Part shown: piece after piece, positions 1,624 through 31,288 of the stretch
How the letters are laid out: every line of letters starts with the position of its first letter
How positions within the stretch are numbered: position 1 is the stretch's first letter
Program-made: the position numbers and the translations under genes
DNA from: Candidatus Pacearchaeota archaeon
GTDB lineage: Archaea > Nanobdellota > Nanobdellia > Pacearchaeales > UBA284
Assembly: GCA_026016245.1 (NCBI GenBank)
Contig: CP061211.1
Location: 420,001-452,000 of the forward strand
Direction: 5' to 3'
Length of the DNA stretch: 32,000 nt
Notes under the pieces: model-generated
What the model saw: the letters and a program-made list of their open reading frames with translations, nothing else
Databases searched by the model: none
What the model was told of the DNA's origin: nothing

Positions 1624-3936
1624 CTAAACCAAAGTTTCTTGTTTTTCAGTCTCAATTATTGCTTCTCCATACTGGCCATCAAAACCTGGTTTTACTTTAA
1701 TTTTCTCCCCTCTATTTTTCAAGATAGCAGATGCAATTTTATCTGTTGTTATCTTTCTTAAATCTTCTACTGGAACATTTAGAAGAATATTATATTCGTC
1801 TTTGAATTTATCTATCAATTTATTATATTCAGCCCATACTTTTTTAGTTGACATTGCTGAATTAAGTAGCTTAGAGAGAATTTCATGTAAAGGTAATAAG
1901 GTATAGAACTTTACAGCTTCTTTTGGTTTGTATCCTTTTTTTCTGTCTGCCAGCTCTTCAACTCTATGTTCTACACCTATTGTTAATGGCTTCTTACATA
2001 TTGGACAGATATTATGGTATTTTTCTATAGCCTCTTTTGGTGAGCATGAAAAGTTGCAAGTCCTGTGTCCATCAAAATGATATTTACCATAAGCAGGATT
2101 AACTTCAATTGTTCCTTTATAACCTTCTTTTGTTCTTATTGCTTTGATAATGTTTTTATATGTTAGTTTAGGCAGATCAAAAATAGTTGCTTCTCTTCCT
2201 AAACGCCATGGCCAGAATGAGTGTAGGTCTGAAAAAGAGGTTATTGTGTATTTATCTAATATACTAAGTCGCCAATTCATTTCAGGGTCAGAATTTCCAC
2301 ACCAAACAGGGATCCCATTCCTTCTAATATAAATGATATGATTTGGAACCTCAAGACAGTACACAAAACCATCATAATTAACCCACGATTCTTTATAGTT
2401 ATATTTTTTGACAATTGAAGGTAGAACTGTATGGGTATTCTTCCTGATAAAGTAGATCACCCACGAATCTTCTGATTGTCTATAGCTTTTTAGTTTAGCA
2501 TGTGGTAACGAAGTAATTGGCGTGCCTTTTTTAAGATGTAATTTATAATATGCAGAAATACCCATTTTCAAAGCAATTTCTTGAAGATCATCTCGTAGCC
2601 TAGTAGAAATAGTAGTTGCAGATAAACCTTTTCTATTTCTTCCATAAATATGACCATCCCCTTTAATGTAATACTCAAAAAAGATTTCTAAAAGTTCTTT
2701 TGATAAAGATTTTATTTCTAGAGGGATAAATTTATTATAGCTTTTTCCAAATTGCTTAAGATAATGAAATAATTGATAATCTCTTACCCTAATCACATTA
2801 TTTCCCTGGTAAATACTATAACCAAAGCTTTCGAGAATTTTCTTCATTTCAAAAAGTAAATCTGTATTTGAGTTAGCTAAACAAACATTATAATCCCCAT
2901 TTTTGCCTTTAGTCGTCCATCCCTCTGCCATCCAAAATCCAAAGAATTTTAACCAAGGTTTTATGGGAATGTGCTTTTCTTTTTTAACTCGAAATCCTTT
3001 GTAATGACGACTTCCATGTTTTATTTTAACAGTTGGTAATGTGAAATATTTTATATTTTTGCCAATCCAGATACCATCTTTTTTAAATCTCTTTGATTTG
3101 TTGAATAAAAATTCTGCTTCTTTAAGAAAAAAATTAGGGGGTTTACGAAAATCACACTTGCTAATCAAAAGTTTATGATTAGGAGTAACTAATAAATCTA
3201 CCCTTTTAGTTTTTAATCTATACATCTTTCCTTTATGTTTATAAGTAAATATTTTTCGTGGTTTCTGAAATTCAATTTTATTATTTTTAATATTTAATGT
3301 GCAAATTTTGTTAGTTTTTTTTACTTGAGGAAATTTTTTCCAACCATTATTAGTTAAAACTTCTGTTTTTTCATCATAACAAGACAGACCTGTTTCAAGA
3401 GCATATATATGTTTGACTTGATCTTCAAATGCCTCTTCAAAACTATCAAAACCTGATTTACTGCCTAAGACGCCAAACCAGGGTGTCCAAATATGTGCTG
3501 GTATAACTTCTATATCTTGTGATATGGATTTTAATGCTTCTGTAACTTCAGGTAAAGGCATTCCAAAAATAGGTCTGCCATCATAGTCTAAACGGCCTTT
3601 TTTTCCTAGATAACTATTGATTTGTTCTACTATTTCAAGATTTGGGGCTAAGATGACGATATGAACTCTCCTTCCTTTATTTCCTTGAGTGTACATTAAT
3701 GAAATTTCTGTTTGCAGAATGAAAGGAAAGCCATTTGCTGTTTTTAAGATTCCTGTATCTTGCTCTTCTAAATATTGCTTTATCTCCTGAAGCCATAAAG
3801 GATGTGTAAAATCACTTGTTCCTAGCAAGTTAACACCTTTAATTTTTGCCCATTTTTCTAGGTTGGGAATACTAAGCTCATGACTTGTTGCTCTTGAGAA
3901 TCTGCTATGTATGTGTAAATCAGCTATAGTTTGCAT
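1624..3936 (-). CDS. endoQ: Endonuclease Q (PHP-domain, TIGR00375-like) carrying an in-frame intein
   Basis: The N-extein carries ADLHIHSRFSRATS (PHP motif I), IVILAPN, PAHIWTPWFG and ALETGLS. The C-extein carries SDPEMNWRLS, SFSDLHS and a Cys-rich zinc finger, CNFSC..(12)..CPICKK..GVEHRVEELADR. The exteins sum to 407 aa, the size expected for EndoQ. Confidence 0.8.
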   Translation of the reverse strand: MQTIADLHIHSRFSRATSHELSIPNLEKWAKIKGVNLLGTSDFTHPLWLQEIKQYLEEQDTGILKTANGFPFILQTEISLMYTQGNKGRRVHIVILAPNLEIVEQINSYLGKKGRLDYDGRPIFGMPLPEVTEALKSISQDIEVIPAHIWTPWFGVLGSKSGFDSFEEAFEDQVKHIYALETGLSCYDEKTEVLTNNGWKKFPQVKKTNKICTLNIKNNKIEFQKPRKIFTYKHKGKMYRLKTKRVDLLVTPNHKLLISKCDFRKPPNFFLKEAEFLFNKSKRFKKDGIWIGKNIKYFTLPTVKIKHGSRHYKGFRVKKEKHIPIKPWLKFFGFWMAEGWTTKGKNGDYNVCLANSNTDLLFEMKKILESFGYSIYQGNNVIRVRDYQLFHYLKQFGKSYNKFIPLEIKSLSKELLEIFFEYYIKGDGHIYGRNRKGLSATTISTRLRDDLQEIALKMGISAYYKLHLKKGTPITSLPHAKLKSYRQSEDSWVIYFIRKNTHTVLPSIVKKYNYKESWVNYDGFVYCLEVPNHIIYIRRNGIPVWCGNSDPEMNWRLSILDKYTITSFSDLHSFWPWRLGREATIFDLPKLTYKNIIKAIRTKEGYKGTIEVNPAYGKYHFDGHRTCNFSCSPKEAIEKYHNICPICKKPLTIGVEHRVEELADRKKGYKPKEAVKFYTLLPLHEILSKLLNSAMSTKKVWAEYNKLIDKFKDEYNILLNVPVEDLRKITTDKIASAILKNRGEKIKVKPGFDGQYGEAIIETEKQETLV
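2293..3381 (-). mobile_element. Intein with LAGLIDADG homing-endonuclease domain (residues 186-548 of the EndoQ ORF, 363 aa)
   Basis: Block A is Cys1 (CYDEKTEVLTNNGW). Block B is LLVTPNHKLL (TxxH). The two LAGLIDADG motifs are LKFFGFWMAEGWT and LEIFFEYYIKGDGHI. Blocks F/G are DGFVYCLEVPNHIIYIRRNGIPVWCGN, followed by a +1 Ser. I checked the boundary codons in the sequence: aca at 3379-3381 encodes Cys, att at 2293-2295 encodes Asn, and aga at 2290-2292 encodes the +1 Ser. Confidence 0.8.
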
Positions 3937-3965: not shown

Positions 3966-3976
3966 TGTTTATATAC
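3966..3976 (+). promoter_or_regulatory. Candidate TATA box for tRNA-Ser, in a divergent promoter region shared with endoQ
   Basis: The A/T tract gatttttatatgtttatatactc ends about 15-25 nt upstream of the tRNA 5' end at 3989. This spacing is compatible with an archaeal TATA box at about -26. Confidence 0.3.
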
Positions 3977-3988
3977 TCTTTTGGATAT

Positions 3989-4070
3989 GCCGGGATGGCC
4001 CAATGGTAAGGCGCAGCCCTGGAAAGGCTGTTTCCGTAAGGATATCTGGGTTCGAATCCCAGTCCCGGCG
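3989..4070 (+). tRNA. tRNA-Ser (anticodon GGA), long variable arm
   Basis: Sequence is GCCGGGATGGCCCAATGGTAAGGCGCAGCCCTGGAAAGGCTGTTTCCGTAAGGATATCTGGGTTCGAATCCCAGTCCCGGCG. Acceptor is GCCGGGA/TCCCGGC, anticodon stem CAGCC/GGCTG, loop CTGGAAA. A long extra arm precedes the T-arm TGGG-TTCGAAT-CCCA. Confidence 0.9.
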
Positions 4071-4083
4071 CTTCCCAAGAAAA

Positions 4084-4710
4084 ATGAAATATAAAGAGCT
4101 AAAAACACTAAACCAAATTATTCTTTCTACTAGAGAACCAGGAGAACGCCAGACTTTATCTCCAGTAGTGAATATACTACTTCCAACACAAAGATACTTA
4201 ATTATTAGTTCTGATCCATCTTCAGATACCGACAAAACTAAAGATCCTCTAGAGAAACATTCAGGATTTGAAGCAAGAATACTGGCCCTCATGTTTTATG
4301 GTTCAGATGATGCACAAACTGTAGTCAAAATTAGACCCCACTACAAAGAATATAAGGAACTATTTTTTAAGAATTTTTACTGGACTCATTTTTCTAAAAT
4401 CTATGCTAGAGGAAAACCTAATTCTTTCTGGGCCGACAAGTTTTTGATTAAGGAAGTTAAGTTATTTGAGCCTGAATGCATAATAGTATTCGGCAGTATT
4501 GTGACAGATTTCCTTTTTGGAAGGGGAAAATTCATTGATAGAATAAACAAGGTTCTTTTGTGGAATAATATCCCAACAATTTGTTGTCTTCATCCTTCAA
4601 AAGACTGGAATATTCGTCGTCGTAATGAATATAGTTTTTATGCAACTTGGAAATTGATAAGACAAAAATGTAAGTTCTACCATAAAGAGGAAGTTGAAAA
4701 ATTAAAATAG
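4084..4710 (+). CDS. Uracil-DNA glycosylase superfamily-like protein with a divergent motif A
   Basis: The ORF-track start at 4003 overlaps tRNA-Ser, so I use the ATG at 4084 (MKYKELKTLN). The layout is UDG-like: RYLIISSDPSSD sits where family-4 enzymes have the GEAPG motif, and PTICCLHPSKDW resembles the HPS motif B. Confidence 0.45.
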   Translation: MKYKELKTLNQIILSTREPGERQTLSPVVNILLPTQRYLIISSDPSSDTDKTKDPLEKHSGFEARILALMFYGSDDAQTVVKIRPHYKEYKELFFKNFYWTHFSKIYARGKPNSFWADKFLIKEVKLFEPECIIVFGSIVTDFLFGRGKFIDRINKVLLWNNIPTICCLHPSKDWNIRRRNEYSFYATWKLIRQKCKFYHKEEVEKLK

Positions 4711-6642: not shown

Positions 6643-6670
6643 ACTTGAGGGCTTGCTTAGGCTGGGTTTT
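6643..6670 (+). repeat. Dispersed repeat copy B (aCTTGAGGGCTTGCTTAGGCTGGGTTTT)
   Basis: A variant of copies A and C with two C-to-T changes. It shares the extension GG(C/T)TGGGTTTT with copy C. It overlaps the last 4 codons and the stop of the minus-strand gene at 6657..7250. Confidence 0.7.
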
Positions 6671-7250
6671 CTAAATATAAAGAATACCATTTAGCAAAAT
6701 TTCTGCCTGTAGCATTAGCTTCTAATGAAGTTTTAGTCCACATAACATATTCTTCATGTGTCATTTCTGCAAGAGTTTTATCATAATTTTCTGGGATAAA
6801 TATTAAGCCTATTTCAGACCATAAATGTTCTTGCATTTTCCCTCTTATCTTCTCAGCAAGTATTCCTTTAATATGACTAATAAAATATTTCGGATTTTTA
6901 AGACTCTTATCAATATATGCAAGGCATTCTCTAAATTCACAATTTCTTTTTTTATTTTCAACTAATTTTAAGATTCCTTCAAGACCTATTGTCTCTAGAG
7001 CAAAGTTAGCAAAAGCCTTTGGAAAACCATTTAATGAAGGAATATAAAAACCAGCATCTAAAGCTACAACTGGTTTCTTAAGTTCATTATAGGCAAATAA
7101 TACTTTTTCTTTTGCAATCTTAACAACATCATCAGACCTAGGTTCATGAATCTCTAATGGGGCTTGAAGAACTTTTACATTATATTTTTCTAATTCTCTC
7201 TGCAAAGATTGTATTTTGCCTTGATTTTTAGTAGCATAGAATAATTCCAT
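6657..7250 (-). CDS. HAM1/RdgB-family non-canonical purine NTP pyrophosphatase (ITPase)-like protein
   Basis: MELFYATKNQGKIQSL matches the ATgN.gK motif. VVALDAGFYIPSLNGFPKAF matches the DDSGL.vdaLnG.PG region. IFIPENYDKTLAEMTHEEY matches F.p.gy.kTfAEm..eeK. Confidence 0.6.
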   Translation of the reverse strand: MELFYATKNQGKIQSLQRELEKYNVKVLQAPLEIHEPRSDDVVKIAKEKVLFAYNELKKPVVALDAGFYIPSLNGFPKAFANFALETIGLEGILKLVENKKRNCEFRECLAYIDKSLKNPKYFISHIKGILAEKIRGKMQEHLWSEIGLIFIPENYDKTLAEMTHEEYVMWTKTSLEANATGRNFAKWYSLYLENPA

Positions 7251-16754: not shown

Positions 16755-17441
16755 ATGTTCATAAAAAAGATTTTTCAAAACAAGGTTGATGAAACTGTAC
16801 ATAAACAATTCATAAGATTTGGTAAAGGGGAGTTTGGAAGCAAAGCTATAATAAATATAAGAAAAACTAGTGTGGTAAAGCTAACAACAAGTTTTGAACT
16901 AGCTGGGGATATCATAATTTTCATCAGTTCTCTTGCTCCATGGTTTAGAGTTGAGGGACTCTTGTCCAACAGGGAGCAGATTCCTTGTTTTGAAGGAAAG
17001 AAGAAAAAAGGGCTTTTTGTTTATAATATAGCAAAAGAGTTGAGAAGTGAAGAACTTAGAGATCTTGTATTAAAATCATATCCTACTTTACTTGATTGTA
17101 TTTCTGGAGATGAAAGTATAAACTTGAAGATAAAAAAGAGGATTCCAAAGCCAGGCAAGAAAACTGAAGCTAAAGTTGATGATAAGTTTTGTCAGTTAAA
17201 TCTTGATGCCAAATACTGGCCACAATTACATAATGAGTTTTTATTTGATCTGCCTTTTGAGATAAAGAAAGCAAGAATAGTGCATACTTTCATCATCAAA
17301 GATATAAAGATTCCGAAAGAGCTGGAAAAAGAGGGGGATTATGAAAAAATTAGGTTGGGGGCCAAGCGAATTGGAAAGGTGATAAGGAAGGTCGTTGTAG
17401 ACGGTAAAGAGATAGTAAAAGAGAAGGATTTTATAGCATAA
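16755..17441 (+). CDS. Hypothetical protein (228 aa) preceding the uL3 operon
   Basis: Long ORF with coding-like composition. I recognise no family. It sits between tRNA-Val and rpl3. Confidence 0.5.
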   Translation: MFIKKIFQNKVDETVHKQFIRFGKGEFGSKAIINIRKTSVVKLTTSFELAGDIIIFISSLAPWFRVEGLLSNREQIPCFEGKKKKGLFVYNIAKELRSEELRDLVLKSYPTLLDCISGDESINLKIKKRIPKPGKKTEAKVDDKFCQLNLDAKYWPQLHNEFLFDLPFEIKKARIVHTFIIKDIKIPKELEKEGDYEKIRLGAKRIGKVIRKVVVDGKEIVKEKDFIA

Positions 17442-17537
17442 ACTTTATAAAGTTCGTCAGATTCATTTTTATAGGTTCATACCTTTTTGGGGTTGTACTG
17501 GGTAGAATGACGCTAAAAATAAAATTAGCTATTAGAA

Positions 17538-18509
17538 ATGCCAAAGACACACAAGCCAAGAGCTGGGTCACTACAGTTCTGGCCGAGAAAGAGAGCTACT
17601 AGAATTTTATCTAGTGCGAACTGGAAACCTCTACAAAAAAAACATTCTGGTCTTCTTGGTTTTATATGTTATAAGGTGGGCATGATACGTGTTCTTGCTC
17701 GAGACTTAACACCTAATTCTATGACTAAAAATAAACAAATCATTATTCCTTCTACATTTGTTGGATGCCCCCCAATGAGAATTCTCGCAGTGAGATTCTA
17801 CAAAGATGATATGGTTGTTTTTGATATTCTTAATGAAAATCTTGATAAGGAATTAAAAAGAAAAATAAAGCTGCCTAAAGAAAAATCAAAAATAGGGAAA
17901 AGGCTGGTTGAGGTTGAGAAGAAAATAAATGAGTTTGATGATATTAGGCTTCTTGTTTACACTCTACCTAAAGAAACTGGCCTCAAGAAGACACCAGATA
18001 TAGCTGAAATAGGTCTTGGAGGAAGTAATTCAGAGAAATTAGATTTTGTTAAGAAATATATTAGCAAGGATATTAAGATGGTGGATTTTTTAAAGTCAGG
18101 ACAGGTTGTTGATGTGAGGGGCGTGACAAAAGGGCATGGGTTTACTGGACCTGTAAAACGTTTTAAGATAGGTCTAAGGCAGCACAAATCTGAGAAAGGC
18201 AGAAGACGCCCTGGAAGTGTTGGCCCCTGGACCCCTTCAAGAATCACTTTTAGAGCGCCTATGGCTGGCCAGTATGGCTTTTTTAGCCGAATTCAATATA
18301 ATTCTAAACTTTTAAGTTCTGGTTCTGCCAGAGATATAGAAAAATTTTCTTTTGAATTTCCACACTATGGTAAGATAAAAACAAACTATATTATTATTAG
18401 GGGTTCTATTCATGGGCCTGCTAAAAGACAGCTTCTTCTTACACTTCCTTTAAGAGAAACAAGATCTGCTACTAAGAAAAATTTTGAAATTTTAAATTTG
18501 CTAAAATAA
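17538..18509 (+). CDS. rpl3: Ribosomal protein uL3
   Basis: PRAGSLQFWPRKRA, GVTKGHGFTGPVKRF and operon position. Confidence 0.95.
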   Translation: MPKTHKPRAGSLQFWPRKRATRILSSANWKPLQKKHSGLLGFICYKVGMIRVLARDLTPNSMTKNKQIIIPSTFVGCPPMRILAVRFYKDDMVVFDILNENLDKELKRKIKLPKEKSKIGKRLVEVEKKINEFDDIRLLVYTLPKETGLKKTPDIAEIGLGGSNSEKLDFVKKYISKDIKMVDFLKSGQVVDVRGVTKGHGFTGPVKRFKIGLRQHKSEKGRRRPGSVGPWTPSRITFRAPMAGQYGFFSRIQYNSKLLSSGSARDIEKFSFEFPHYGKIKTNYIIIRGSIHGPAKRQLLLTLPLRETRSATKKNFEILNLLK

Positions 18510-18510
18510 A

Positions 18511-19287
18511 ATGAAGAAAGTATCTATTATTGGATTAGAAGGAGGAAAGGTTAAGGAGATTGAATTACCAGCTGTGTTTAATGTTCATGTTCGTGAGGAT
18601 ATAATCCACAAAGTATTTGAATCAACTAAAAAACAGCAGCTCTATGGTTCCTATACATTAGCTGGAATAGAAGCTGCTGCTAGCAGCAAGCAGAGCCATA
18701 GAAGACATAAGTATAAGACTCTTTATGGTCATGGTATTTCCAGAGTTCCAAGAAAAGTTCTTACAAGAAGAGGGGAAAGATTTTATTGGAGGGGTGCTTT
18801 CATTCCTGGAACTGTAGGAGGTAGGGCAGCACATCCCCCAAAAGCATTAAAAAGAAGGATAAAAGTGAACAAAAAGGAAGGAAAGATTGCTCTTCAAGGC
18901 TCCATAGCTGCAACTGCTTCAAAAAAAATACTCGAGAAGAAATATAAGAAACTTAAAATCACTTTTGAGCTTCCAGTGATAATAGAATCCTCGATTTTGG
19001 AACAAAAAGCTAAGGACATAGCTAAGTTCATATCAAAATTATTAAACATAAGAATAAGGTCTGAAAAGAAAATAAGGGCTGGAAAAGGAAAGATGAGAGG
19101 AAGGAAATACAAAAAAGTTAGGAAAATTTTGCTTGTTACTTCAAGCAAAGAAAAAGCAAGCAAATTAAAAAATTTTGGTTTGGATATAACTCAAACTAGC
19201 CAATTAAATGTCTCAACTCTTTCTTCAGGAGGAATCCCTGGAAGAATTGTAATCTGGACTGAAAGAGCCATGGGAGAATTAAAATGA
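18511..19287 (+). CDS. rpl4: Ribosomal protein uL4
   Basis: HGISRVPR...RGAFIPGTVGGRAAHPPK, and operon order. Confidence 0.93.
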   Translation: MKKVSIIGLEGGKVKEIELPAVFNVHVREDIIHKVFESTKKQQLYGSYTLAGIEAAASSKQSHRRHKYKTLYGHGISRVPRKVLTRRGERFYWRGAFIPGTVGGRAAHPPKALKRRIKVNKKEGKIALQGSIAATASKKILEKKYKKLKITFELPVIIESSILEQKAKDIAKFISKLLNIRIRSEKKIRAGKGKMRGRKYKKVRKILLVTSSKEKASKLKNFGLDITQTSQLNVSTLSSGGIPGRIVIWTERAMGELK

Positions 19288-19535
19288 AAAAAATATTACT
19301 ATATCCTTTAACAACAGAAAAATCAATTAGGATGATAGAGATTGAAAATAAAATTACTTTTGTGGTTAATAGGAAAGCAGGCAAAGTAGAGATCGCAAAG
19401 GCAATTACAGAAAATTTTAAATCTAAGGTCAAGGAGGTAAATGTTCAAATAATAAATAATAAAAAAGTGGCTTTTATCAGACTCAAACCTGAAACTCCTG
19501 CCATAGATATCGCAACAAAGCTTGGAATCATATAA
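19284..19535 (+). CDS. rpl23: Ribosomal protein uL23
   Basis: LLYPLTTEKSIRMIEIENKITFVV, size and position. The start overlaps the rpl4 stop (ATGA). Confidence 0.93.
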   Translation: MKKILLYPLTTEKSIRMIEIENKITFVVNRKAGKVEIAKAITENFKSKVKEVNVQIINNKKVAFIRLKPETPAIDIATKLGII

Positions 19536-19536
19536 A

Positions 19537-20238
19537 ATGGGAAAAAGAATAATATCACAAGCGAGAGGAAGAGGAAGCCTTACTTATAGAACAAGAAAAA
19601 AAGCATTTAGGATCAGTGTAAGCTATCCTAGCACAGAGGGGATAGGTAGAGTTGAGAAGTTAATAAATGTTTCTTGTTACAAGGCCCCGGTCGCTAAAAT
19701 AAGAATAGATGGAAAAGTCTTTTATAATATTGCTGCTGAGGGTATATATGAAGGACAAGAAGTTAGTGTTGGAAAAAAAGCAGATATCATACCAGGAAAC
19801 ATAACTCAGCTAGCAAATATCCCTATAGGAACTGAGATATTCAGTATTGAAACAGTCCCTGGTGATGGACCAAAATTAGTCAGAGCCAGTGGTTTAAATG
19901 CAAGAATCACTAAAAAAAGTCTTAAAGCTGTTTATGTTTTATTGCCTTCTAAAAAAGAAAAGATATTTAGTCCTAATGCTAGAGCCACTGTAGGAGTCAC
20001 AGCTGCATCTGGAAGACACGAAAAACCTCTTCTTAAAGCTGGTAAGAAGTACCACATGGCTAAGGCCATTGGAGGCAGGATTTATCCGAGAACAAGTGCT
20101 GTTAAAATGAATGTTGTTGATCATCCTTTTGGTTCTGGCAGGGGTAAAAGAATTAAGAGCAAAATAGCTAAAAGAAATGCCCCTCCTGGAAGAAAAGTTG
20201 GGTTGCTAAGACCAAGGAGGACAGGAAAGAGGAAATAA
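19537..20238 (+). CDS. rpl2: Ribosomal protein uL2
   Basis: [14 protein letters not shown]..., [14 protein letters not shown] prefer the ATG at 19537 to the TTG at 19522. Confidence 0.95.
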
Positions 20239-20239
20239 G

Positions 20240-20626
20240 ATGGTAAAAGAATTTAATTATAGGGGTAAAACACTTTCAGAATTGAAAACTATAGATCTAA
20301 GAGAGTTTTCAAAGTTTTTGCCTTCAAGAGAAAGAAGAAGTTTATTGAGACAATCAGAAATAGTAGAGAGATTCTTAAAACATTGTGAGAAAAAAATGGC
20401 CAAAGGAAAACCAATCAAAACACATTTGAGAGATCTGATAATTGTCCCGCAGATGGTTAACTTAACTATTAATGTTTATAATGGCAAAACTTTCTTGCCT
20501 GTTAAAATAGTTGAAGAAATGATGGGACACCGTCTTGGAGAATTTGCTCATACTAGAGGAAAAATTCAGCACGGTACTCCAGGTATTGGTGCAACAAGAA
20601 GTTCAGCTTTCCTATCAGTTAAATAA
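20240..20626 (+). CDS. rps19: Ribosomal protein uS19
   Basis: [28 protein letters not shown]. Confidence 0.95.
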
Positions 20627-20633
20627 AGATAAA

Positions 20634-21230
20634 ATGGAAAAAACAAAAGAAATGAAGGAAGTAAAAAAAGAAGAAAAGAAAAAGGGAAGAAATATAGTTG
20701 CAAGAGCATTAGGAAAAGATTTTCCTATTAGTACAAAACACTCAATTGCTATATGCTCTTTTATTAAAGGAAAGAACCCGCAAGAAGTTATCACTTTTTT
20801 AGAACAGGTTATTAGAAAAAAGGTTGCTGTTCCAATGAAAGGAGAAATACCTCATAGAGCAAATATGCCAAAAGGAAAATATTCTGGAAGATATCCTGCA
20901 AAAGCATCTAGATATTTCATTAAATTACTAAAAAATTTGGTTGCGAATGCCTCTGTAAAGGGGCTCGACCCAGATTCTTTAATAATAAGTAAGGCGATAG
21001 CAAACAAAGCTTCAAGACCTTTTAGAGGAACGAGAATTGCTTATGGTAGAAAATTTTTCAAAAGAACACACATAGATCTTGAAGCAATTGAAATCAAGAA
21101 AAAGAAAAAAGAGGAAAAGAAAACAAAAGAAACAAAGGAAGAGAAAAAAGAAGAAAAGAAAGAGGAAAAAAAGCCAGAAGAAAAGACAGGAAAAGAGAAG
21201 AAAAAGGAGGAGAAGGAGAAAGAAAAATGA
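20634..21230 (+). CDS. rpl22: Ribosomal protein uL22 with a Lys/Glu-rich C-terminal tail
   Basis: VARALGKDFPISTKHSIAICSFIKGKN... is the uL22 core. The ATG at 20634 follows the rps19 stop, whereas the track start at 20535 overlaps rps19. The tail is KKKKKEEKKTKETKEEKKEEKKEEKKPEEKTGKEKKKEEKEKEK. Confidence 0.92.
   Translation: MEKTKEMKEVKKEEKKKGRNIVARALGKDFPISTKHSIAICSFIKGKNPQEVITFLEQVIRKKVAVPMKGEIPHRANMPKGKYSGRYPAKASRYFIKLLKNLVANASVKGLDPDSLIISKAIANKASRPFRGTRIAYGRKFFKRTHIDLEAIEIKKKKKEEKKTKETKEEKKEEKKEEKKPEEKTGKEKKKEEKEKEK
21100..21170 (+). repeat. Lys/Glu-coding module, copy 1 (in the uL22 tail)
   Basis: Positions 21100-21160 match 26580-26640 with a single mismatch (21142 a versus 26622 t). 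The next 10 nt match 8 of 10. Both copies are in the same codon phase. Confidence 0.85.
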
Positions 21231-21991
21231 TTAAAAAGAAATTTATTGAAGCAAAAAAGCAGGAATTTGAGATAAAGGAGTTTATAAAAACACAGCTTGG
21301 GAAAGGGAGGGTGAGTGATATTAAGATTGAGAGAACGCCTGTTGGAGAAAAAATAGTGATAATAACTTCAAGACCTGGGCTGGTAATCGGTCGTGGAGGA
21401 GAGATTATTCAGAAAGTAAATACATCATTAAAGAAAAGATTCAAACTTGAAAATCCTCAGATTGAAGTATCTGAAATTCAAGAGGCAATATTTGATGCTC
21501 AAACTGTTGCTGATCAAATAGCTTTATCATTAGAAAGATTTGGCCCGCTTAGTTTTAAATTAATAGCATATAGAGAACTTGATGGGATATCAAAGGCAGG
21601 AGCTCTTGGTGCAGAAATAAGGTTAAGTGGCAGGCTTCCAAGCGAGAGATCTAGAAGTTGGAGATTCGCTTTTGGTTATCTCAGCAAGACAGGGGCAATT
21701 GCAGATATTATAGTTAACAGAGCCCAAGCAAAGGCATTCACAAGACCAGGAGTGGTTGGTGTAAAGGTAGCAATAGTTCCTAGAGATGCTAAGATCCCTG
21801 ATAAAATAAGCATCAGTAAGAAAATTATAGAAGAAGAAATAAAAGAAAAGTTAAAGAAAGCTGAGGAAGAGGCAGAAGTAAAAACTAAGAAAAAGGCAAA
21901 ATCTAAAGAGAAAAAGAAAAGGAAGAAAACAACTAAGAAAAAGAAAGAAGTAAAGGAAGAGAAAAAGGGAGGGGAGGAGGAAGCAAAATAA
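21227..21991 (+). CDS. rps3: Ribosomal protein uS3 with a Lys/Glu-rich C-terminal tail
   Basis: KH-domain core (VIITSRPGLVIGRGGEIIQK...) plus operon position. Confidence 0.95.
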   Translation: MIKKKFIEAKKQEFEIKEFIKTQLGKGRVSDIKIERTPVGEKIVIITSRPGLVIGRGGEIIQKVNTSLKKRFKLENPQIEVSEIQEAIFDAQTVADQIALSLERFGPLSFKLIAYRELDGISKAGALGAEIRLSGRLPSERSRSWRFAFGYLSKTGAIADIIVNRAQAKAFTRPGVVGVKVAIVPRDAKIPDKISISKKIIEEEIKEKLKKAEEEAEVKTKKKAKSKEKKKRKKTTKKKKEVKEEKKGGEEEAK

Positions 21992-21992
21992 A

Positions 21993-22187
21993 ATGGCAAT
22001 ACTTAGAAATAGAGAAATACAAGTTTGGAATAAGAAAGAATTATTAAATAAAAGAAAAGAGCTTCAGCTTGAATTATTAAAATTAAAAATTCAAAAAGGC
22101 CAGGCAAGCGCTGGAACTAAAAAATTAAAAGAAATTAAAAAAACAATAGCAAGAATTAATACTAAGTTAAATCAACTTAAAGAATAA
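21993..22187 (+). CDS. rpl29: Ribosomal protein uL29
   Basis: ELLNKRKELQLELLKLKIQKGQ; 64 aa; position. Confidence 0.9.
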   Translation: MAILRNREIQVWNKKELLNKRKELQLELLKLKIQKGQASAGTKKLKEIKKTIARINTKLNQLKE

Positions 22188-22188
22188 G

Positions 22189-22479
22189 ATGGATATATGC
22201 CCAAATTGTGGCTTACCAATAGAAACTTGCATTTGTAAGGAACTAGCAAAAACAAAACAAAAGATAAAGATACAGACAACGAAAAGAAGATTCGGTAAAA
22301 TTGTTACAATAGTTTCAGGGATTGAGAATGACATCAAAGGAATAGCAAAAAAACTGAAGGAAGAGTTGGCTTGTGGTGGAACAGTAAAAAACAACACCGT
22401 TGAACTTCAAGGAAATCATATAAACAAAGTGAAACAGAAATTGATAGAGATTGGATTCAATAAAGATAATATAGAATAA
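22189..22479 (+). CDS. sui1: Translation initiation factor aSUI1 (eIF1 homolog)
   Basis: N-terminal CPNCG..CIC zinc knuckle, then RRFGKIVTIVSGIE...LKEELACGGTVKNNTVELQGNH. Confidence 0.9.
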   Translation: MDICPNCGLPIETCICKELAKTKQKIKIQTTKRRFGKIVTIVSGIENDIKGIAKKLKEELACGGTVKNNTVELQGNHINKVKQKLIEIGFNKDNIE

Positions 22480-22502
22480 ACAAAGCAAGAAAAAACAAGA
22501 AA

Positions 22503-22724
22503 ATGAAGGAAGTGCCGCAGTTAGTCATAGGTAGCATAATAAGAATAACAAAAGCAAAGAACAAGTCACTTAGAGGGATGGGAGGAAAAGTGATAGATGA
22601 GACAAAAAATTTACTCATCATCGAAACAAGAAAAGGAATAAAAAAAATAATTAAAGAGCAAATAGAATTTAAGATTGAAAATGAAAGAAAAGAAGAAAAA
22701 GGAAGAAGGAAGGAAGAAGGATAG
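22503..22724 (+). CDS. rnp1: RNase P protein component 1 (Rpp29/Pop4 family), short form
   Basis: SIIRITKAKNKSLRGMGGKVIDETKNLLIIETRKGIKKIIKE matches the v.V..S.n.s..G..G.vvdETkn.l.i pattern. It occupies the canonical position between SUI1 and S17. Confidence 0.8.
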   Translation: MKEVPQLVIGSIIRITKAKNKSLRGMGGKVIDETKNLLIIETRKGIKKIIKEQIEFKIENERKEEKGRRKEEG

Positions 22725-23019
22725 TGCGAAGTGTGATGACAAGAAATGTCCGATTCATGGCCAGTTAAGTATAAGAGGAAAATATTTTAAAGGAAGTGTT
22801 AAGAAAATAGTTGGCCAGAGAGCTGTTATTGAATTTAAGAGACTCATTTATGTGAAAAAATATGAACGTTTTTCCAAGGCATCCACAAAATTGCATGCTT
22901 ATCTACCCAAATGTTTGATTGAAAAAATAAATGTTGGAGATAGAGTAAAGATAGGCGAATGCAGGCCCTTGAACAAGATAATGCATTTTGCTGTAATTGA
23001 AAAAATAAAAGAAAAATAA
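22681..23019 (+). CDS. rps17: Ribosomal protein uS17
   Basis: CDDKKCPIHGQLSIRGKYFKGSVKK...KVGDRVKIGECRPL. The ATG at 22681 overlaps the rnp1 3' end by 44 nt. Confidence 0.92.
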   Translation: MKEKKKKEEGRKKDSAKCDDKKCPIHGQLSIRGKYFKGSVKKIVGQRAVIEFKRLIYVKKYERFSKASTKLHAYLPKCLIEKINVGDRVKIGECRPLNKIMHFAVIEKIKEK

Positions 23020-23020
23020 A

Positions 23021-23422
23021 ATGAAAGCAACAGCCGCAAGAATTGTGAAAGGAATCAATATAGGAGCGTTGATAAATGTCGCAGATAATAGTGGAGCAAA
23101 AATTGTAAGAATAATTGGAGTAAAAAGAGGCAAGGGCAGAAAGGGAAGGCAGATAGCTTGTGGTGTGGCAGATCTTGTGAGAGTCAGTGTTCGTAAAGGA
23201 ACTATTGCAGTACGTAAGCAGGTTTTTTTTGCTGTTGTAGTGAGGCAGAAAAAAGAATATAGAAGGAATACTGGTGAACGTATTAGTTTTTTTGATAATG
23301 CTGTGGTTATACTTAAAGATAAAGAAGGGAATCCAAAAGGAACCCAAATTAAAGGGCCTATTGCTAGAGAGGCTGCTGATAGGTGGCCTTTTGTGTCTAG
23401 AGTGGCAAATCTCATTGTTTAA
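23021..23422 (+). CDS. rpl14: Ribosomal protein uL14
   Basis: LINVADNSGAKIVRIIGV and the C-terminal ARVANLIV-like end. Confidence 0.95.
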   Translation: MKATAARIVKGINIGALINVADNSGAKIVRIIGVKRGKGRKGRQIACGVADLVRVSVRKGTIAVRKQVFFAVVVRQKKEYRRNTGERISFFDNAVVILKDKEGNPKGTQIKGPIAREAADRWPFVSRVANLIV

Positions 23423-23425
23423 AAA

Positions 23426-23818
23426 ATGAAACAAAAATTTTCACGGAAATGGAAGGCATCAAAACAGCCTAGAAAACAAAGAAAATACAAAGCCAAAGCT
23501 CCATTACACGTGAAACATAAAATGTTAGCTACTCATTTATCAAAAGAGCTTAGAAAGAAACACGGTAAAAGATCTATAACTTTAAGAAAGGATGATGTTG
23601 TTAAAATAATCCGTGGAACCTTCAAAGGAAAGCAAGGAAAAATTTCAATAGTCAACATGAAAAAAATAAGGGTTTATATTGAAGGGATACAAAGAACGAG
23701 AAAAGACGGGACAAAGGTCAATGTCCCATTTAATCCTTCAAACCTAATAATTGTAGAATTAAATTTAGATGATAAAAAAAGAAATAAAAAATTAAGGAGG
23801 AGAGAAGGAGAAAAATAA
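23426..23818 (+). CDS. rpl24: Ribosomal protein uL24
   Basis: KOW motif LRKDDVVKIIRGTFKGKQGKI; position. Confidence 0.93.
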   Translation: MKQKFSRKWKASKQPRKQRKYKAKAPLHVKHKMLATHLSKELRKKHGKRSITLRKDDVVKIIRGTFKGKQGKISIVNMKKIRVYIEGIQRTRKDGTKVNVPFNPSNLIIVELNLDDKKRNKKLRRREGEK

Positions 23819-23819
23819 A

Positions 23820-24482
23820 ATGCATCTTAAAAGAATAGCTATGCCAAGAAGTTGGCCACTTCCAAAGAAGGAAAGAACATTTATTGTAAAAGGTAGGGGT
23901 CCCCATCCTTCAAAGATGTCCCTTCCTCTACTAGTGGTTCTTAGAGACATAATAAAAGAGGCTAAAACAAGAAAGGAAGTTAAAAAAATATTGAGTGAAG
24001 GTCTAGTTCTTATTGATAATAGGGTTATAAAGGATGAAAAATTTAATGTGGGATTATTTGATAGAATTTATATTAAAAAGCTTGAAAAGGCATTCACTGT
24101 ACATCTAACAAAAAAAGGGAAACTTAAGATTCAGGAAATAAGCAAGGAAAAAGTTCATAAAAAACCTTGTAAAGTAGCTGGGAAAAAGATTCTTAAAAAA
24201 AATAAAGTGCAGATTAATTTACATGATGGCCGAAACTTGATAATAAAAGAGAAGGATATTAGGGTTGGGGGGAGTATAATTCTTGATCTAAAAACAAATA
24301 AAGCTACTGATTATTTGAAACTAGATAAGGGTTCTTTAGTATTGGTTATTGGTGGAAAACATACTGGAGATAATGGCAAAATTTCTGATATAGATGATAA
24401 AGTATCTGTGGTGATAGGGGAGAAAATATTCAAGATATCAAAGGAAAATGTATTTGTTATAGATAAGGGAGAATTAAAATGA
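23820..24482 (+). CDS. rps4e: Ribosomal protein eS4
   Basis: MHLKRIAMPRSWPLPKKERTFIVKGRGPH. Confidence 0.93.
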   Translation: MHLKRIAMPRSWPLPKKERTFIVKGRGPHPSKMSLPLLVVLRDIIKEAKTRKEVKKILSEGLVLIDNRVIKDEKFNVGLFDRIYIKKLEKAFTVHLTKKGKLKIQEISKEKVHKKPCKVAGKKILKKNKVQINLHDGRNLIIKEKDIRVGGSIILDLKTNKATDYLKLDKGSLVLVIGGKHTGDNGKISDIDDKVSVVIGEKIFKISKENVFVIDKGELK

Positions 24483-24982
24483 ATGAAGACAAAATGAGAG
24501 AGATTAAAATAGACAGTATAACATTGCACTGTTCAACATCAGACCCAGGAAAACTGGATAAATCTATAAAACTCCTGAAGTTGATTGCCAAGGCAACTCC
24601 TGTTAAAACACTGGCCAAGAAAAGGATCCCTGCATTCAAGATAAGGCCAGGACTGCCGATTGGTTGTAAGGTTACTGTTAGAAAAAATACTAATGAATTA
24701 TTGAAAATGTTATTTACAGGTATACCCTCCCTTAAAGATAAACAGTTCAATCCAGGCTTTTTAAGTTTTGGAGTAAAAGAGTATATTGAAATTACTTCGA
24801 TACCCTATCAAAGAGATATTGGAATAATAGGTTTTGATGTTGTTGTTAAATTAAAGAGGCCTGGTTTTAGAATAACACAGAGAAAAAGAACAAAAAGCAA
24901 GATAGGAAAAAAACATAGAATTACAAAGGTTGAAACAAAAGAATTTTTTGAAAAAAATTTTGAAATAAATATTGAAAAATAA
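24479..24982 (+). CDS. rpl5: Ribosomal protein uL5
   Basis: [18 protein letters not shown]...[12 protein letters not shown]. Confidence 0.93.
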
Positions 24983-24983
24983 A

Positions 24984-25214
24984 ATGACAGCAAGCGATTG
25001 GAGAAAAATATTGAAGCAACTGGAAAATAAGCCAGCAATAAAAGCTCGCTTTTTGAAATTTTGTAAGCCAAAGGACCGTAAGTTTGGAATTGCGGCGCGT
25101 AAATGTGTAAGGTGTGGAAGATATGGAGCACACATCAAAAAATATGATCTCCATCTCTGCAGACAATGTTTCAGAGAAATAGCTAAAGAAATTGGTTTTA
25201 AAAAATATATGTAA
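24984..25214 (+). CDS. rps14: Ribosomal protein uS14 (zinc type) with an N-terminal extension of about 20 aa
   Basis: [44 protein letters not shown] prefer the ATG at 24984 to the TTG at 24972. Confidence 0.9.
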
Positions 25215-25216
25215 AA

Positions 25217-25603
25217 ATGGTAGTTAGAGACTGGCTTTCGGCGATGCTGAATGATTTAATGAATTGCAAAAAAGCTGGAAAGAAAGAAACTATAGCGATG
25301 CCTGTATCCAACTTGATGTTGGGGGTATTAAAAATATTAAAGGATGAAGGGTATATTGAAGATTTCAATATAGTGGAGGATAAGTTTAAGCATGTTTTAA
25401 TAAAAATCAAAAAAATAAACAAGTGTGGGGCAATAAAGCCCAGATTTTTTGTGAAAAAAAAGGAGTTTGATAAGTATATTAAGAGATACCTTCCTGCAAG
25501 AGGTTTTGGGATACTCATAGTTTCTACGAATAAAGGTTTGATTACCCATCGTGAGGCTATAGAAAAGAATATTGGAGGAAGCTTGATAGCTTACTGTTAT
25601 TAA
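25217..25603 (+). CDS. rps8: Ribosomal protein uS8
   Basis: LKILKDEGYIEDF...GILIVSTNKGLITHREA...GGSLIAYCY. Confidence 0.95.
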   Translation: MVVRDWLSAMLNDLMNCKKAGKKETIAMPVSNLMLGVLKILKDEGYIEDFNIVEDKFKHVLIKIKKINKCGAIKPRFFVKKKEFDKYIKRYLPARGFGILIVSTNKGLITHREAIEKNIGGSLIAYCY

Positions 25604-25604
25604 A

Positions 25605-26162
25605 ATGAAAAAGAAAATAACAAAAATAATCAAGATACCAGAAAAAACAGAAATAAAACTAGAACTTCCGAAAATAGTTGTTAGTGGCCCTCTTGGAAGT
25701 ATTGAGAAAAAATTCAAATTTAAAAGAATACAGATAAAAAAGGAAAATAATGAGATGATAATTGAACATGAAAAAGCCACAAAAAAAGATAAAAAAATAA
25801 TAAATACGATGGCAAGTCTTGTTGAAAGTATGATTAGGGGGGTTAATGAGGGTTATGAGTATAAACTCCAAATATGCTCAACACATTTTCCTATAAGTGT
25901 CAAAATAGACAAGGAAAAAAATCTCTTGGTTATAAAGAATTTTCTTGGTGAGAATAAAGATAGGATAGTGAGATTACTCCCCGAAGTGGATATAAAGATA
26001 CAGGGAGATATCATATCTATAAATTCAGTAAATAAAGAACTAGCTGGACAGCAGGCAGCAGATATTGAAGTTGTTTCAAGAATCAAAAGACGTGATAGGA
26101 GAGTTTTCCAAGATGGAATATGGATAATTAAAAAAGAAAAAGGAAGACCAAAATCAAAATGA
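25605..26162 (+). CDS. rpl6: Ribosomal protein uL6
   Basis: Two-domain uL6 pattern (VVSGPLGSIEKKF...GYEYKLQICSTHFPISV...); position. Confidence 0.93.
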   Translation: MKKKITKIIKIPEKTEIKLELPKIVVSGPLGSIEKKFKFKRIQIKKENNEMIIEHEKATKKDKKIINTMASLVESMIRGVNEGYEYKLQICSTHFPISVKIDKEKNLLVIKNFLGENKDRIVRLLPEVDIKIQGDIISINSVNKELAGQQAADIEVVSRIKRRDRRVFQDGIWIIKKEKGRPKSK

Positions 26163-26767
26163 TAAAGAAAAAGCCCAGATTTTTGAGAAAAGACACTTTC
26201 AAGAAATCAAGATTAGGGAAAAGAAAGAAAAAAAAACAGATATGGAGAAGGCCTATAGGTAGGCATAGCAAAATAAGGGAAAAAAGAAGGGGTTATGGGA
26301 AACAGCCATCAATAGGTTATAGTTCCCCACGTAAAATCAGAGGCTCTATGAGGGGATTGAAACCTGTATTAATTTATTCTCCCAAAGATATTAATGAAAT
26401 TAAAAAAAATGAAATTGTTATTGTGGGCAAGGTTGGTAAAAAAAGAAAAATAGATATCGCTAAGAAAGCTCTTGAGAAAAAGATTATTCTTTCAAATCTA
26501 AATGCTCAAAAATTCATAAGGAAAATTGAGGCAGAAAAGAAAAAGAAAGAAGAATTAAGGAAGAAAAGAAAAGTGGAAGAAAAGAAAAAAGAGGAAAAGA
26601 AAACAAAAGAAACAAAGGAAGTGAAAAAAGAAGAAAAGAAGGAGGAAAAGGAAAAAGGAAAAATCCTGCGTAAGGAAACAAAAAAAGAAAAGCCAGAAGT
26701 AAAAATTAAGCCAAAAGGAGGGCCTAAAGAAAAAAAAGAAATGTTTAGAAAGGCGCTTGAAAAATGA
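26159..26767 (+). CDS. rpl32e: Ribosomal protein eL32 with a Lys/Glu-rich C-terminal extension of about 75 aa
   Basis: PRFLRKDTFKKSRLGK..WRRPIGRHSKIR..GYSSPRKIRG is the eL32 core. The tail contains KKKEEKKTKETKEVKKEEKKEEKEK. Confidence 0.92.
   Translation: MIKKKPRFLRKDTFKKSRLGKRKKKKQIWRRPIGRHSKIREKRRGYGKQPSIGYSSPRKIRGSMRGLKPVLIYSPKDINEIKKNEIVIVGKVGKKRKIDIAKKALEKKIILSNLNAQKFIRKIEAEKKKKEELRKKRKVEEKKKEEKKTKETKEVKKEEKKEEKEKGKILRKETKKEKPEVKIKPKGGPKEKKEMFRKALEK
26580..26650 (+). repeat. Lys/Glu-coding module, copy 2 (in the eL32 tail)
   Basis: See copy 1 at 21100-21170. The two share 61 nt with 1 mismatch, in the same reading frame. Confidence 0.85.
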
Positions 26768-27192
26768 AAACACTAGCTTTACAAAAAAGACTTGCAGCTG
26801 CCGTACTTAAAGTTGGACAGAATAAGGTATGGTTTGATCCTTCTATGATTAGTGAGATTCGGGAAGCTATCACAAAAGAGGATATAAAGGCTCTGATAAA
26901 GGAAAAAGCAATTAAGAAAAAACCTATCATTGGAGTTAAAAGGAGAGCTGGTAAAAAAAGACAGAAAAGGAAGAGAAAGGGAAGGGGCAGAGGAGCTGGA
27001 AGAAAAAGAAAGATTGTGAAAAAAAGGAAAAAAGAATATATGATAAAAATAAGAAATCTGCGCTCTTATATTCATGAACTAAAATTAGGAGGAAAAATAG
27101 ATTCAAAAGAAAGCAGAAAATTAAGGAGGCTTGCAAAAGCTGGCGTATTCAAATCTAAAAAAGATATTAAAGAAAAGGTAAAAATAAGATGA
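26764..27192 (+). CDS. rpl19e: Ribosomal protein eL19
   Basis: LALQKRLAAAVLKVGQNKVWFDP. Confidence 0.93.
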   Translation: MKTLALQKRLAAAVLKVGQNKVWFDPSMISEIREAITKEDIKALIKEKAIKKKPIIGVKRRAGKKRQKRKRKGRGRGAGRKRKIVKKRKKEYMIKIRNLRSYIHELKLGGKIDSKESRKLRRLAKAGVFKSKKDIKEKVKIR

Positions 27193-27689
27193 AAAGAAAA
27201 TTCGCTAAAGTAACATTCAGGAGAAGACATGAAGGAAAAACAGATTATAAAGCAAGAGCTACTCTCCTTAAATCTAAAGAACCCAGATTGATTATAAGAA
27301 AAACAGATAAGTACATCATTGCACAAATCGTGAAAAGTAAGGAAGCTCAAGATTCAACTGTGTGTTATGCTAACTCAAAAGAATTAGGTAGGCTGGGATG
27401 GGATTTAAGTTTCAAAAATATCCCTGCTTCATATTTAACAGGGCTTTTGATAGCTAAAAAGGCTAAGGAGAAAGGAATAAAGAAAGCGATAATTGACATC
27501 GGCCTTTATAGGTCTATTAAGGGCTCAAAACTATATGCTGTTGTTAAGGGGGCATTAGATGGCGGATTAGATATCCCACATGAAGAGAAAATGATACCAA
27601 AGGAGGAAAGAATAAAAGGCTCTCATGCCAAAAATGCTGAAAAAATAAATAAGATATTTAATGAAATAAGAGAAAAATTAAAGGGATAA
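27189..27689 (+). CDS. rpl18: Ribosomal protein uL18
   Basis: FRRRHEGKTDYKARATLLKS..PRLIIRKT.KYIIAQIV. Confidence 0.93.
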   Translation: MKRKFAKVTFRRRHEGKTDYKARATLLKSKEPRLIIRKTDKYIIAQIVKSKEAQDSTVCYANSKELGRLGWDLSFKNIPASYLTGLLIAKKAKEKGIKKAIIDIGLYRSIKGSKLYAVVKGALDGGLDIPHEEKMIPKEERIKGSHAKNAEKINKIFNEIREKLKG

Positions 27690-27690
27690 A

Positions 27691-28521: not shown

Positions 28522-28526
28522 AGAAA

Positions 28527-28964
28527 ATGGTAAAAATAATTGTTATCAGAATGAGGGGCATGGTGAATGTAGCCCCAGATGTGAAAAAAACTTTGGATAT
28601 GCTGAGACTGAGGAAAAAATTTTCTTGTGTGATAGTTGATGACAACCCAGAAACTATTGGCAAGCTAAAAAAAGTGCAAAATTATGCTTCTTATGGCCCT
28701 ATAAAGGAAAATACAATAAAACAATTGATTCTAAAGAGAGCAAAACTTCCAGGAAATAAACCATTTAAAGATGAAAAAAAAGTAGAGGGTTTTGTTAAAG
28801 ATTTTATTGAAGGAAAAAAGAATATGAAAGAATTGGGAATAAAACCTTTCTTTAGATTACATCCTCCAAGAGGAGGATTTAAGAGAGAAACTAGAAAATT
28901 ATTCCCTAAAGGTATCTTGGGGAATAATAAAGAAATAAATAAACTTGTTTTGAAAATGTTGTAA
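28527..28964 (+). CDS. rpl30: Ribosomal protein uL30
   Basis: VIRMRGMVNVAPDVKKTLDMLRLRKKFSCVIV. The ATG at 28527 follows the rps5 stop, whereas the track start at 28482 overlaps rps5. Confidence 0.9.
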   Translation: MVKIIVIRMRGMVNVAPDVKKTLDMLRLRKKFSCVIVDDNPETIGKLKKVQNYASYGPIKENTIKQLILKRAKLPGNKPFKDEKKVEGFVKDFIEGKKNMKELGIKPFFRLHPPRGGFKRETRKLFPKGILGNNKEINKLVLKML

Positions 28965-28965
28965 G

Positions 28966-30779: not shown

Positions 30780-30834
30780 CATAAGATTTAAATAAAACAA
30801 AATAAAAATTAGAAGATAAGATAGATAAAATAAA

Positions 30835-31287: not shown

Positions 31288-31288
31288 G

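Follow-up and report, generated by a model that had tools for sequence, protein, structure and literature searches.

A LAGLIDADG intein at the ETGLS/SD motif of a Pacearchaeota endonuclease Q and its allelic relatives in archaea and bacteria

RESULTS

Organization of an interrupted endonuclease Q gene

The window analysed here is a 32,000-nt stretch of DNA from a Candidatus Pacearchaeota archaeon (assembly GCA_026016245.1, contig CP061211.1, positions 420,001 to 452,000), and our subject is a gene inside it that codes for an endonuclease Q (EndoQ)-type PHP nuclease and carries an insert with the features of an intein. A previous sequence-only reading of this DNA had proposed that a LAGLIDADG intein splits the conserved ETGLS/SD motif of the nuclease, and the proposal held on every test that we ran. 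The open reading frame (ORF), located on the minus strand, contains zero internal stops. Its product is 100% identical to protein P0001 of a search made with the full precursor, annotated at NCBI as ‘MAG: hypothetical protein IB618_02420 [Candidatus Pacearchaeota archaeon]’, and the DPANN source guessed in the earlier reading was correct. The division of the 770 aa into 185, 363 and 222 aa, leaving a protein of 407 aa when the insert is removed, was confirmed to the base: Cys186 to Asn548 map exactly onto positions 2293..3381 of the window, that is, 363 in-frame codons between Ser185 and Ser549. The junctions read ALETGLS|CYDEKTEV at the N side and VYCLEVPNHIIYIRRNGIPVWCGN|SDPEMNW at the C side. 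The features of the locus, in window coordinates, are the following.

1624..3936, minus strand: EndoQ precursor ORF (770 aa, 89.8 kDa), consisting of N-extein, intein and C-extein
3382..3936, minus strand: N-extein (aa 1-185), the PHP-domain half, ending at Ser-1, delimited by alignment to Pyrococcus furiosus EndoQ (PfuEndoQ)
2293..3381, minus strand: intein (aa 186-548; 363 aa, 43.2 kDa, isoelectric point 9.9), a Hint splicing domain into which a LAGLIDADG endonuclease is inserted
3379..3381, minus strand: Cys1, the block A nucleophile
3175..3186, minus strand: block B, T-P-N-H (intein T66 = B:7, H69 = B:10)
2920..2952, minus strand: LAGLIDADG motif 1, LKFFGFWMAEG, with catalytic acid E153 (Pfam LAGLIDADG_3)
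2653..2685, minus strand: LAGLIDADG motif 2, IFFEYYIKGDG, with catalytic acid D242 (aligns to PI-PkoII, 2cw7)
2293..2364, minus strand: blocks F and G, VYCLEVPNHIIYIRRNGIPVWCGN; Cys342 = F:4, Gly = G:6, Asn363 = G:7
1624..2292, minus strand: C-extein (aa 549-770) and stop codon, beginning at Ser+1 (codon TCT, 2290..2292)
2269..3396, minus strand: span of the presumed homing site, in two halves, ETGLS (3382..3396) and SDPEMNWR (2269..2292), which are contiguous in empty alleles

The insert has the anatomy, profiles and predicted fold of an endonuclease-intein

All the intein hallmarks that had been read from the letters (Cys1, VTPNH, two LAGLIDADG motifs, block F/G and a +1 Ser) were found at their positions, and the splicing residues Cys1, T66-P-N-H69, Asn363 and Ser+1 are all present. 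Profile searches with residues 186-548 agreed with the assignment in part. Two stretches of the excised insert matched Pfam LAGLIDADG_3 (PF14528) with E = 4e-13, which exceeds the gathering score of this profile, and TIGR01445 intein_Nterm reached 25.4 bits for a cut-off of 24.5, whereas Pfam Intein_splicing (PF14890) scored 27.4 bits, under its gathering score of 35.8. The sole sequence match of the insert in the PDB was PI-PkoII (E = 5e-8), whose block F ‘YVYDLSV’ aligns with ‘FVYCLEV’ of the window and places Cys342 at F:4. We also built an AlphaFold2 model of the intein from 14 allelic inteins, which is of medium confidence (predicted local distance difference test, 66; predicted template modelling score, 0.59) and leaves residues 69-107 unmodelled. 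When this model was compared with the PDB using Foldseek, the top 15 matches were all endonuclease-inteins with probability 1.00, the best being TliVMA, PI-SceI, PI-PkoII, PhoVMA and PI-PfuI (E from 7e-12 to 4e-8, template modelling scores of 0.45-0.57). The endonuclease part of the model next matched I-DmoI, with a target-based template modelling score (TMt) of about 0.6.

PI-PkoII (Thermococcus kodakarensis Pol-2, 2cw7), TliVMA/PhoVMA (7qsu, 7qss, 7qst), PI-SceI and PI-PfuI thus share with the window intein a Hint domain and a double LAGLIDADG endonuclease. They differ from it in sequence (10-14% identity over the structural alignments), in host (DNA polymerase, VMA ATPase and ribonucleotide reductase, versus EndoQ) and at block F, where the Asp of the VYDL of PI-PkoII sits opposite Cys342. 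These solved inteins have the usual penultimate His. Class 3 inteins have no nucleophile at position 1 and carry a Trp(B:12)-Cys(F:4)-Thr(G:5) triad. The Cys at F:4 prompted us to consider this class for the window intein, and we rejected it: the window intein has the Cys1 nucleophile, Leu at B:12 and Cys at G:5, and shares only the F:4 Cys with class 3. Class 3 inteins conserve Cys F:4 together with two other positions (PMC4031507). Anatomy, profile matches and predicted fold identify the insert as an intein of the class 1 type whose LAGLIDADG homing endonuclease is a single chain with both motifs.

The intein lies next to the base-recognition pocket of EndoQ

We then compared the host protein with PfuEndoQ, taking the roles of the residues from PMC5961232. 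The spliced 407-aa extein aligned end to end with the P. furiosus enzyme (5zb8/7k30; residues 5-400, E = 3e-52), without any gap at the junction. TIGR00375 matched the precursor as two stretches that break at profile position 165/166. The spliced extein covers positions 2-373 of this profile and scores 184.5 bits, below the curated cut-off of 326.6; the window EndoQ is a divergent DPANN branch. According to the alignment, all the residues whose importance in PfuEndoQ was established by mutagenesis are kept: H8, H10, E76, H84, R114, H139, D193 and H195 correspond to H8, H10, E77, H92, R121, H148, D207 and H209 after splicing. The zinc finger, CxxC...CxxC, is kept too. The Zn ligands H8, H10, E77, H92 and H148 lie in the N-extein, together with R121 and residues E181-T-G-L184 of the pocket. 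D570 and H572, which correspond to Pfu D193 and H195, lie in the C-extein with the four-Cys Zn finger and the C-terminal domain. Close homologs of the extein are named ‘endonuclease Q family protein’ at NCBI, and Pfam PF27218, ‘MJ0043_C’, which is the EndoQ C-terminal domain, matches the EndoQ-family proteins found here. The homology supports the assignment of the host gene as an EndoQ-type PHP nuclease, for which cleavage at deaminated bases is predicted.

In PfuEndoQ, the pocket for the flipped deaminated base is lined by Glu167, Leu168, Gly169 and Leu170 (PMC5961232). The intein junction corresponds to Pfu S171|A172, directly after these Glu-x-Gly-Leu residues and the strand that forms the pocket, and the insert separates the five Zn-ligand/pocket elements of the N-extein from the Asp and His of the C-extein. 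The unspliced precursor would very probably be inactive. The sequence-only reading had described ETGLS-SDPEMNW as a highly conserved stretch, and 120 intein-free homologs bear this out: E-T-G-[LM]-S-S-D-P-x-M-N-W-R is invariant or nearly so among them.

The same site is occupied in many archaea and bacteria

The protein search with the full precursor returned, besides the window protein, at least 119 further 90%-identity clusters of the same architecture (P0002-P0120 being examples), so that at least 120 clusters carry the insert at the same point of EndoQ. These allelic inteins agree with the window intein in host, insertion point, length (355-369 aa) and invariant residues, and are 56-77% identical to it. 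C1, T66, the following P, H69, N363 and S+1 are invariant in 120/120 alleles, as is the C-Y-D start. At the first catalytic acid, E153, 119 alleles have E or D and the remaining one has G; at the second, D242, 115 have D and five have N. The W360-C-G-N363 ending is invariant or nearly so, with C361 in 119/120, and the intein is better conserved than its host protein (70% versus 52% identity).

A scan of one genome per species confirmed intein relatives in 107 genomes, of which the best 80 loci were retained. In 50 of these 80 the site ETG[LMI]S|S[DN]P is occupied by a complete intein, and a further copy, at L043, is truncated by the contig end; loci L002-L050 are examples of the allelic inteins. 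Archaeal hosts among the 50 are labelled Woese-, Pace-, Aenigm-, Micr- and Nanoarchaeota, Bathyarchaeia, Nitrososphaeria, Brockarchaeota and ‘Methanobacteriota’. Bacterial hosts include Wolfe-, Portnoy-, Roizman-, Taga- and Peregrinibacteria and Saccharibacteria, as well as Omnitrophota, Cloacimonadota and Planctomycetales. Misbinning as the origin of ‘bacterial’ hosts was rejected for the two loci that we checked, where the neighbouring genes, Lgt and Fpg, are of bacterial type.

The suggestion that the window might hold a new intein allele and insertion site is thus not supported, the site being occupied in at least 120 clusters and 50 species genomes. The annotations of the allelic inteins read ‘hypothetical protein’, ‘LAGLIDADG family homing endonuclease’ or ‘PHP family Zn ribbon phosphoesterase’, and a search of the open-access literature found no paper connecting EndoQ with an intein. 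The EndoQ intein allele is abundant in databases and apparently absent from descriptions in the literature searched.

Distribution and codon usage point to horizontal movement

Both empty and occupied alleles, which the earlier reading had proposed to look for, were found in related genomes. The 120 closest extein relatives listed (62-85% identity, 399-456 aa, largely from Pace- and Woesearchaeota) are all intein-free. Intein-free homologs, 120 in number, show zero inserted columns between S185 and S186 and a contiguous ETG[LM]S-SDPxMNWR. Intein-bearing homologs have exteins only 43-61% identical to that of the window, as against 56-77% for their inteins. In the 45 loci with complete genes, intein and extein identities to the window were uncorrelated (Spearman 0.16, p = 0.29). 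Mean intein identity to the window is 71% for bacterial hosts and 66% for archaeal ones; the corresponding extein means are 48% and 51%.

Values of the ratio of nonsynonymous to synonymous substitution rates (dN/dS) against the ten nearest inteins were 0.07-0.14, and 0.05-0.17 for the endonuclease domain alone, these being rough figures because dS is saturated. The low ratios indicate that purifying selection has acted on both activities, splicing and cleavage. We also analysed the Ser codons at the junction, in a comparison whose loci are not phylogenetically independent and with search patterns for empty alleles that excluded the junction itself. The +1 Ser codon is TCN in 50/50 occupied loci and in the window, whose junction reads TCT|TCT, and the -1 Ser codon (3382-3384 in the window) is TCN in 45/50. 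Among the empty alleles (L001 and L082-L161) both flanking codons are a mixture of TCN and AGY: at +1, 76 empty alleles divide into 41 with TCN and 35 with AGY, the nearest one, L001, having AGT|AGT. At four other conserved Ser codons used as controls, AGY is found in 30-42% of the occupied genes. Fixation of TCN at the +1 codon fits a homing process that co-converts the flanks, or an endonuclease that prefers such targets. Around L001, the closest empty allele, the genes immediately next to EndoQ differ from those in the window, so that a comparison with an empty site in the same context is impossible. Base composition was rejected as a sign of foreign origin, since the difference in G+C content between the intein (28.5%) and the two exteins (35.3% and 32.0%) is small and uninformative. 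Overall, these sequence comparisons indicate that the intein entered the window lineage horizontally and that the same allele has been moving among archaeal and bacterial EndoQ genes.

A wider clade of inteins ends in Gly-Asn

The penultimate residue of the window intein is Gly, and this had been taken as a particularity of the copy that often changes the kinetics of C-terminal cleavage. It is not particular to it. The residue at G:6 is Gly in 120/120 allelic inteins, and F:4 is Cys in 101 and Ser in 19 of the 120, never Asp. A search of 1.84 billion 50%-identity representatives gave 10,010 matches at E ≤ 1e-3, including 1,552 at E ≤ 1e-30, and 84 of the 86 best full-length clade matches end in Gly-Asn. 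Many of the top representatives show 2-8 matched stretches. In the non-EndoQ loci of the species-genome scan, the inteins are 29-41% identical to that of the window and have the ends C[YF][DS]xxTE...[WF][CS]GN.

Hosts of the clade include an AAA ATPase P-loop (GPPG|CGKT), MCM, NrdD, an NAD-dependent epimerase, a class III aminotransferase, a carbamoyltransferase, PurD, an RNA polymerase beta-like protein and a Lak megaphage. Full-length homology (29-48% identity), Gly at G:6 and a +1 Ser, Thr or Cys relate these inteins to that of the window, from which they differ in host gene and insertion site. The full-length relatives H1-H4 lie in Prevotella phage Lak-A1 at about 504.2-505.3 kb (34% identity) and H5/H6, also full-length, in the thymidylate synthase of Corynebacterium phage P1201, phage relatives being 28-34% identical overall; phage and megaphage genomes could be vehicles for the clade. 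At eight loci from Nitrososphaerales and ‘archaeon’ metagenome-assembled genomes (L053, L057, L058, L060-L063 and L065), a related Gly-Asn intein interrupts a Pfam AAA protein at its Walker A motif, GPPG|CGKT; the N-terminal sequence of this ATPase suggests a Vps4/CdvC-type cell-division enzyme. The in-frame N-extein of the anaerobic ribonucleotide reductase at the NrdD locus L071 appears to hold at least one extra LAGLIDADG-type insert upstream of the Gly-Asn intein, and this NrdD appears to be a multi-intein host.

About 5% of functional inteins do not have His at G:6, and at F:4 Cys ranks second in frequency (PMC4031507). Functional inteins with no penultimate His have been described (Chen, Benner and Perler 2000; Wang and Liu 1997, for Ceu ClpP; both as cited in PMC4031507), and they share with the window intein a splicing-compatible residue other than His at G:6. 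Reversion to His at this position aids some inteins and impairs others (PMC4031507), and a G547H change in the window intein could impair splicing as easily as help it. Because Gly is found in 120/120 alleles and 84/86 clade representatives, we regard it as a selected, splicing-compatible state of the whole clade. The clade may have replaced the penultimate His by Gly and the F:4 Asp by Cys or Ser, in which case Asn cyclisation would be catalysed in a so far uncharacterised way.

Other intein sites in the EndoQ family

Four homologs of the precursor (P0042, P0046, P0064 and P0092) are double-intein proteins with a second EndoQ intein at PAH|CWTPW. Like the window intein it occupies an active-site position of EndoQ, immediately following the Zn ligand that corresponds to Pfu His139; unlike it, it has canonical C...HN|C ends, a length of 380-417 aa and an unrelated sequence. 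The PAH|C site is empty in the window, where it corresponds to H148|I149 at about 3490-3495 on the minus strand. The homology search with PfuEndoQ listed only Thermococcales among its matches, and all 120 clusters (316-440 aa) are intein-free. By the name of Pfam PF27218, M. jannaschii MJ0043 belongs to the same family as the window EndoQ. MJ0043 is the host of the InBase and Swiss-Prot intein ‘Mja Hyp-1’, and through it the EndoQ family has probably been listed as an intein host since the 1990s; literature searches on MJ0043 and its intein yielded nothing relevant. No Methanocaldococcus locus is found among the best 80 of the 107 loci confirmed in the species-genome scan.

Genomic neighbourhood

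A tRNA-Ser(GGA) gene (3989-4071, plus strand) lies 53 nt upstream of the EndoQ start codon in divergent orientation. The listed ORF 3969..4292 on the minus strand and the first ~27 codons of ORF 4003..4710 on the plus strand are translated from this tRNA gene and are probably spurious. ORF 4003-4710, with a likely start Met at 4084 or 4291, shows weak similarity to the uracil-DNA-glycosylase superfamily (Pfam UDG, 20.8 bits, below the gathering score), and a Ham1/ITPase gene at 6657-7250 on the minus strand is a clear match (E = 4e-21). EndoQ, the UDG-like ORF and Ham1/ITPase, within about 3 kb, may together make up a small neighbourhood that deals with deaminated bases and nucleotides. Farther away, positions 17000-31300 contain a long run of plus-strand genes with strongly positive GC and AT skew that ends in SecY (29406-30779). 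The run looks like an archaeal ribosomal-protein/SecY cluster, SecY being the gene checked.

DISCUSSION

Taken together, we consider it highly probable that the EndoQ gene of this Pacearchaeota archaeon contains a genuine mobile class 1 intein with a double-motif LAGLIDADG homing endonuclease, which would splice and home as expected from its intein family and which arrived horizontally. The 90-kDa precursor would very probably be inactive before splicing. Cys1, aided by Thr66 and His69, would form a thioester with Ser185, and the N-extein would then be transferred to the hydroxyl of Ser+1. Asn363 would cyclise and free the intein without a His at G:6 and F:13, through residues conserved in the clade, and an O-to-N shift would rebuild ETGLS-SDPEMNW to yield a 47-kDa active EndoQ. 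The released 43-kDa basic intein would act as a site-specific endonuclease in which Glu153 and Asp242 bind metal; it would cut intein-free EndoQ alleles at the conserved junction, and repair would copy the intein into them. The patchy distribution, the discordant histories of intein and extein and the fixed TCN at the +1 codon lend indirect support to such cleavage.

Several observations weigh against this proposal. The Intein_splicing profile stays below its threshold, the structural model is of medium confidence with a gap over residues 69-107, and the intein has Gly rather than His at G:6 and Cys rather than Asp at F:4, while the His position of block F varies (H, Q, K or R) among the 120 allelic inteins. 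As for mobility, the saturation of dS makes the dN/dS values rough and no near-identical donor was found among the sampled inteins, the closest being 77% identical. The codon test lacks phylogenetic independence, and one of its control codons, S206, also differs between the occupied and empty sets, in the opposite direction. Finally, windowed nucleotide identity of the flanks in occupied and empty alleles revealed no clear co-conversion tract beyond the junction codons.

Part of these observations would also be expected if the intein splices while its endonuclease is dead in this copy, a late stage of the homing cycle in which the element is kept as precise loss is rare. Near-identical donor and recipient alleles were not found (the best intein match is 77% identical), dS is saturated, and some family members have indeed lost one of the catalytic acids (E153G or D242N). 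The window copy, however, retains both acids and every family-invariant residue, and the dN/dS of its endonuclease domain is as low as that of the splicing domain, so that we consider a dead endonuclease unlikely. We give slightly less weight to a conditional switch, in which splicing, and with it EndoQ activity, would await a redox signal sensed by Cys1, Cys342 and Cys361, a change in temperature or a DNA signal, the intein being kept partly for regulation. Its location in the active-site pocket, the conservation of the junction-proximal cysteines (C1, C342 and C361) and an intein that varies less than its host protein would suit such a role, and conditional splicing is documented in other repair and replication inteins (PMC4513877 and PMC6195587). 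Yet the closest extein relatives listed manage without the intein, Ser replaces Cys342 and Cys361 in many clade members, and the patchy distribution suits selfish mobility.

The missing penultimate His and F:4 Asp, together with the sub-threshold Intein_splicing match, could also be read as signs of a degenerate, non-splicing intein, either domesticated or dead, that would leave the gene as a pseudogene or as a permanently fused two-domain protein. We find this very improbable: the nucleophiles and block B are invariant over 120 alleles and a clade of thousands, the extein retains every catalytic residue, some functional inteins do without His at G:6, and Cys ranks second among the residues at F:4 (PMC4031507). 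Even less credible, to the point of being negligible, is an artefact of assembly or binning that fused unrelated sequences. The source is a metagenome-assembled genome and the intein has a lower G+C content than its exteins, but the insert keeps the reading frame exactly, its junction is competent for splicing, and no fewer than 120 independent protein clusters and 50 genomes show the same architecture. A mobile intein that splices and homes remains our preferred reading.

In practical terms, the gene should be annotated as an intein-containing endonuclease Q, and not as a ‘hypothetical protein’ or a ‘LAGLIDADG homing endonuclease’. Inteins target the active sites of a number of enzymes of DNA metabolism, and a nuclease for the repair of deaminated bases joins that list, with at least two such sites in the EndoQ family. 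A single allele, better conserved than its host gene, is common to DPANN and other archaea, bacteria of the Candidate Phyla Radiation (CPR) and Omnitrophota, and belongs to a clade with Gly-Asn ends. This broader picture is the better lead: these inteins could supply new splicing chemistry for protein engineering and could trace horizontal exchange in groundwater and sediment communities. More tentatively, we suggest as a possibility that C[YF]D...W[CS]GN inteins constitute a very large and essentially undescribed lineage with megaphage relatives, whose EndoQ allele is now crossing the boundary between Archaea and Bacteria among ultra-small DPANN and CPR hosts. If this were true, the EndoQ allele would be a tractable marker of gene flow between the domains.

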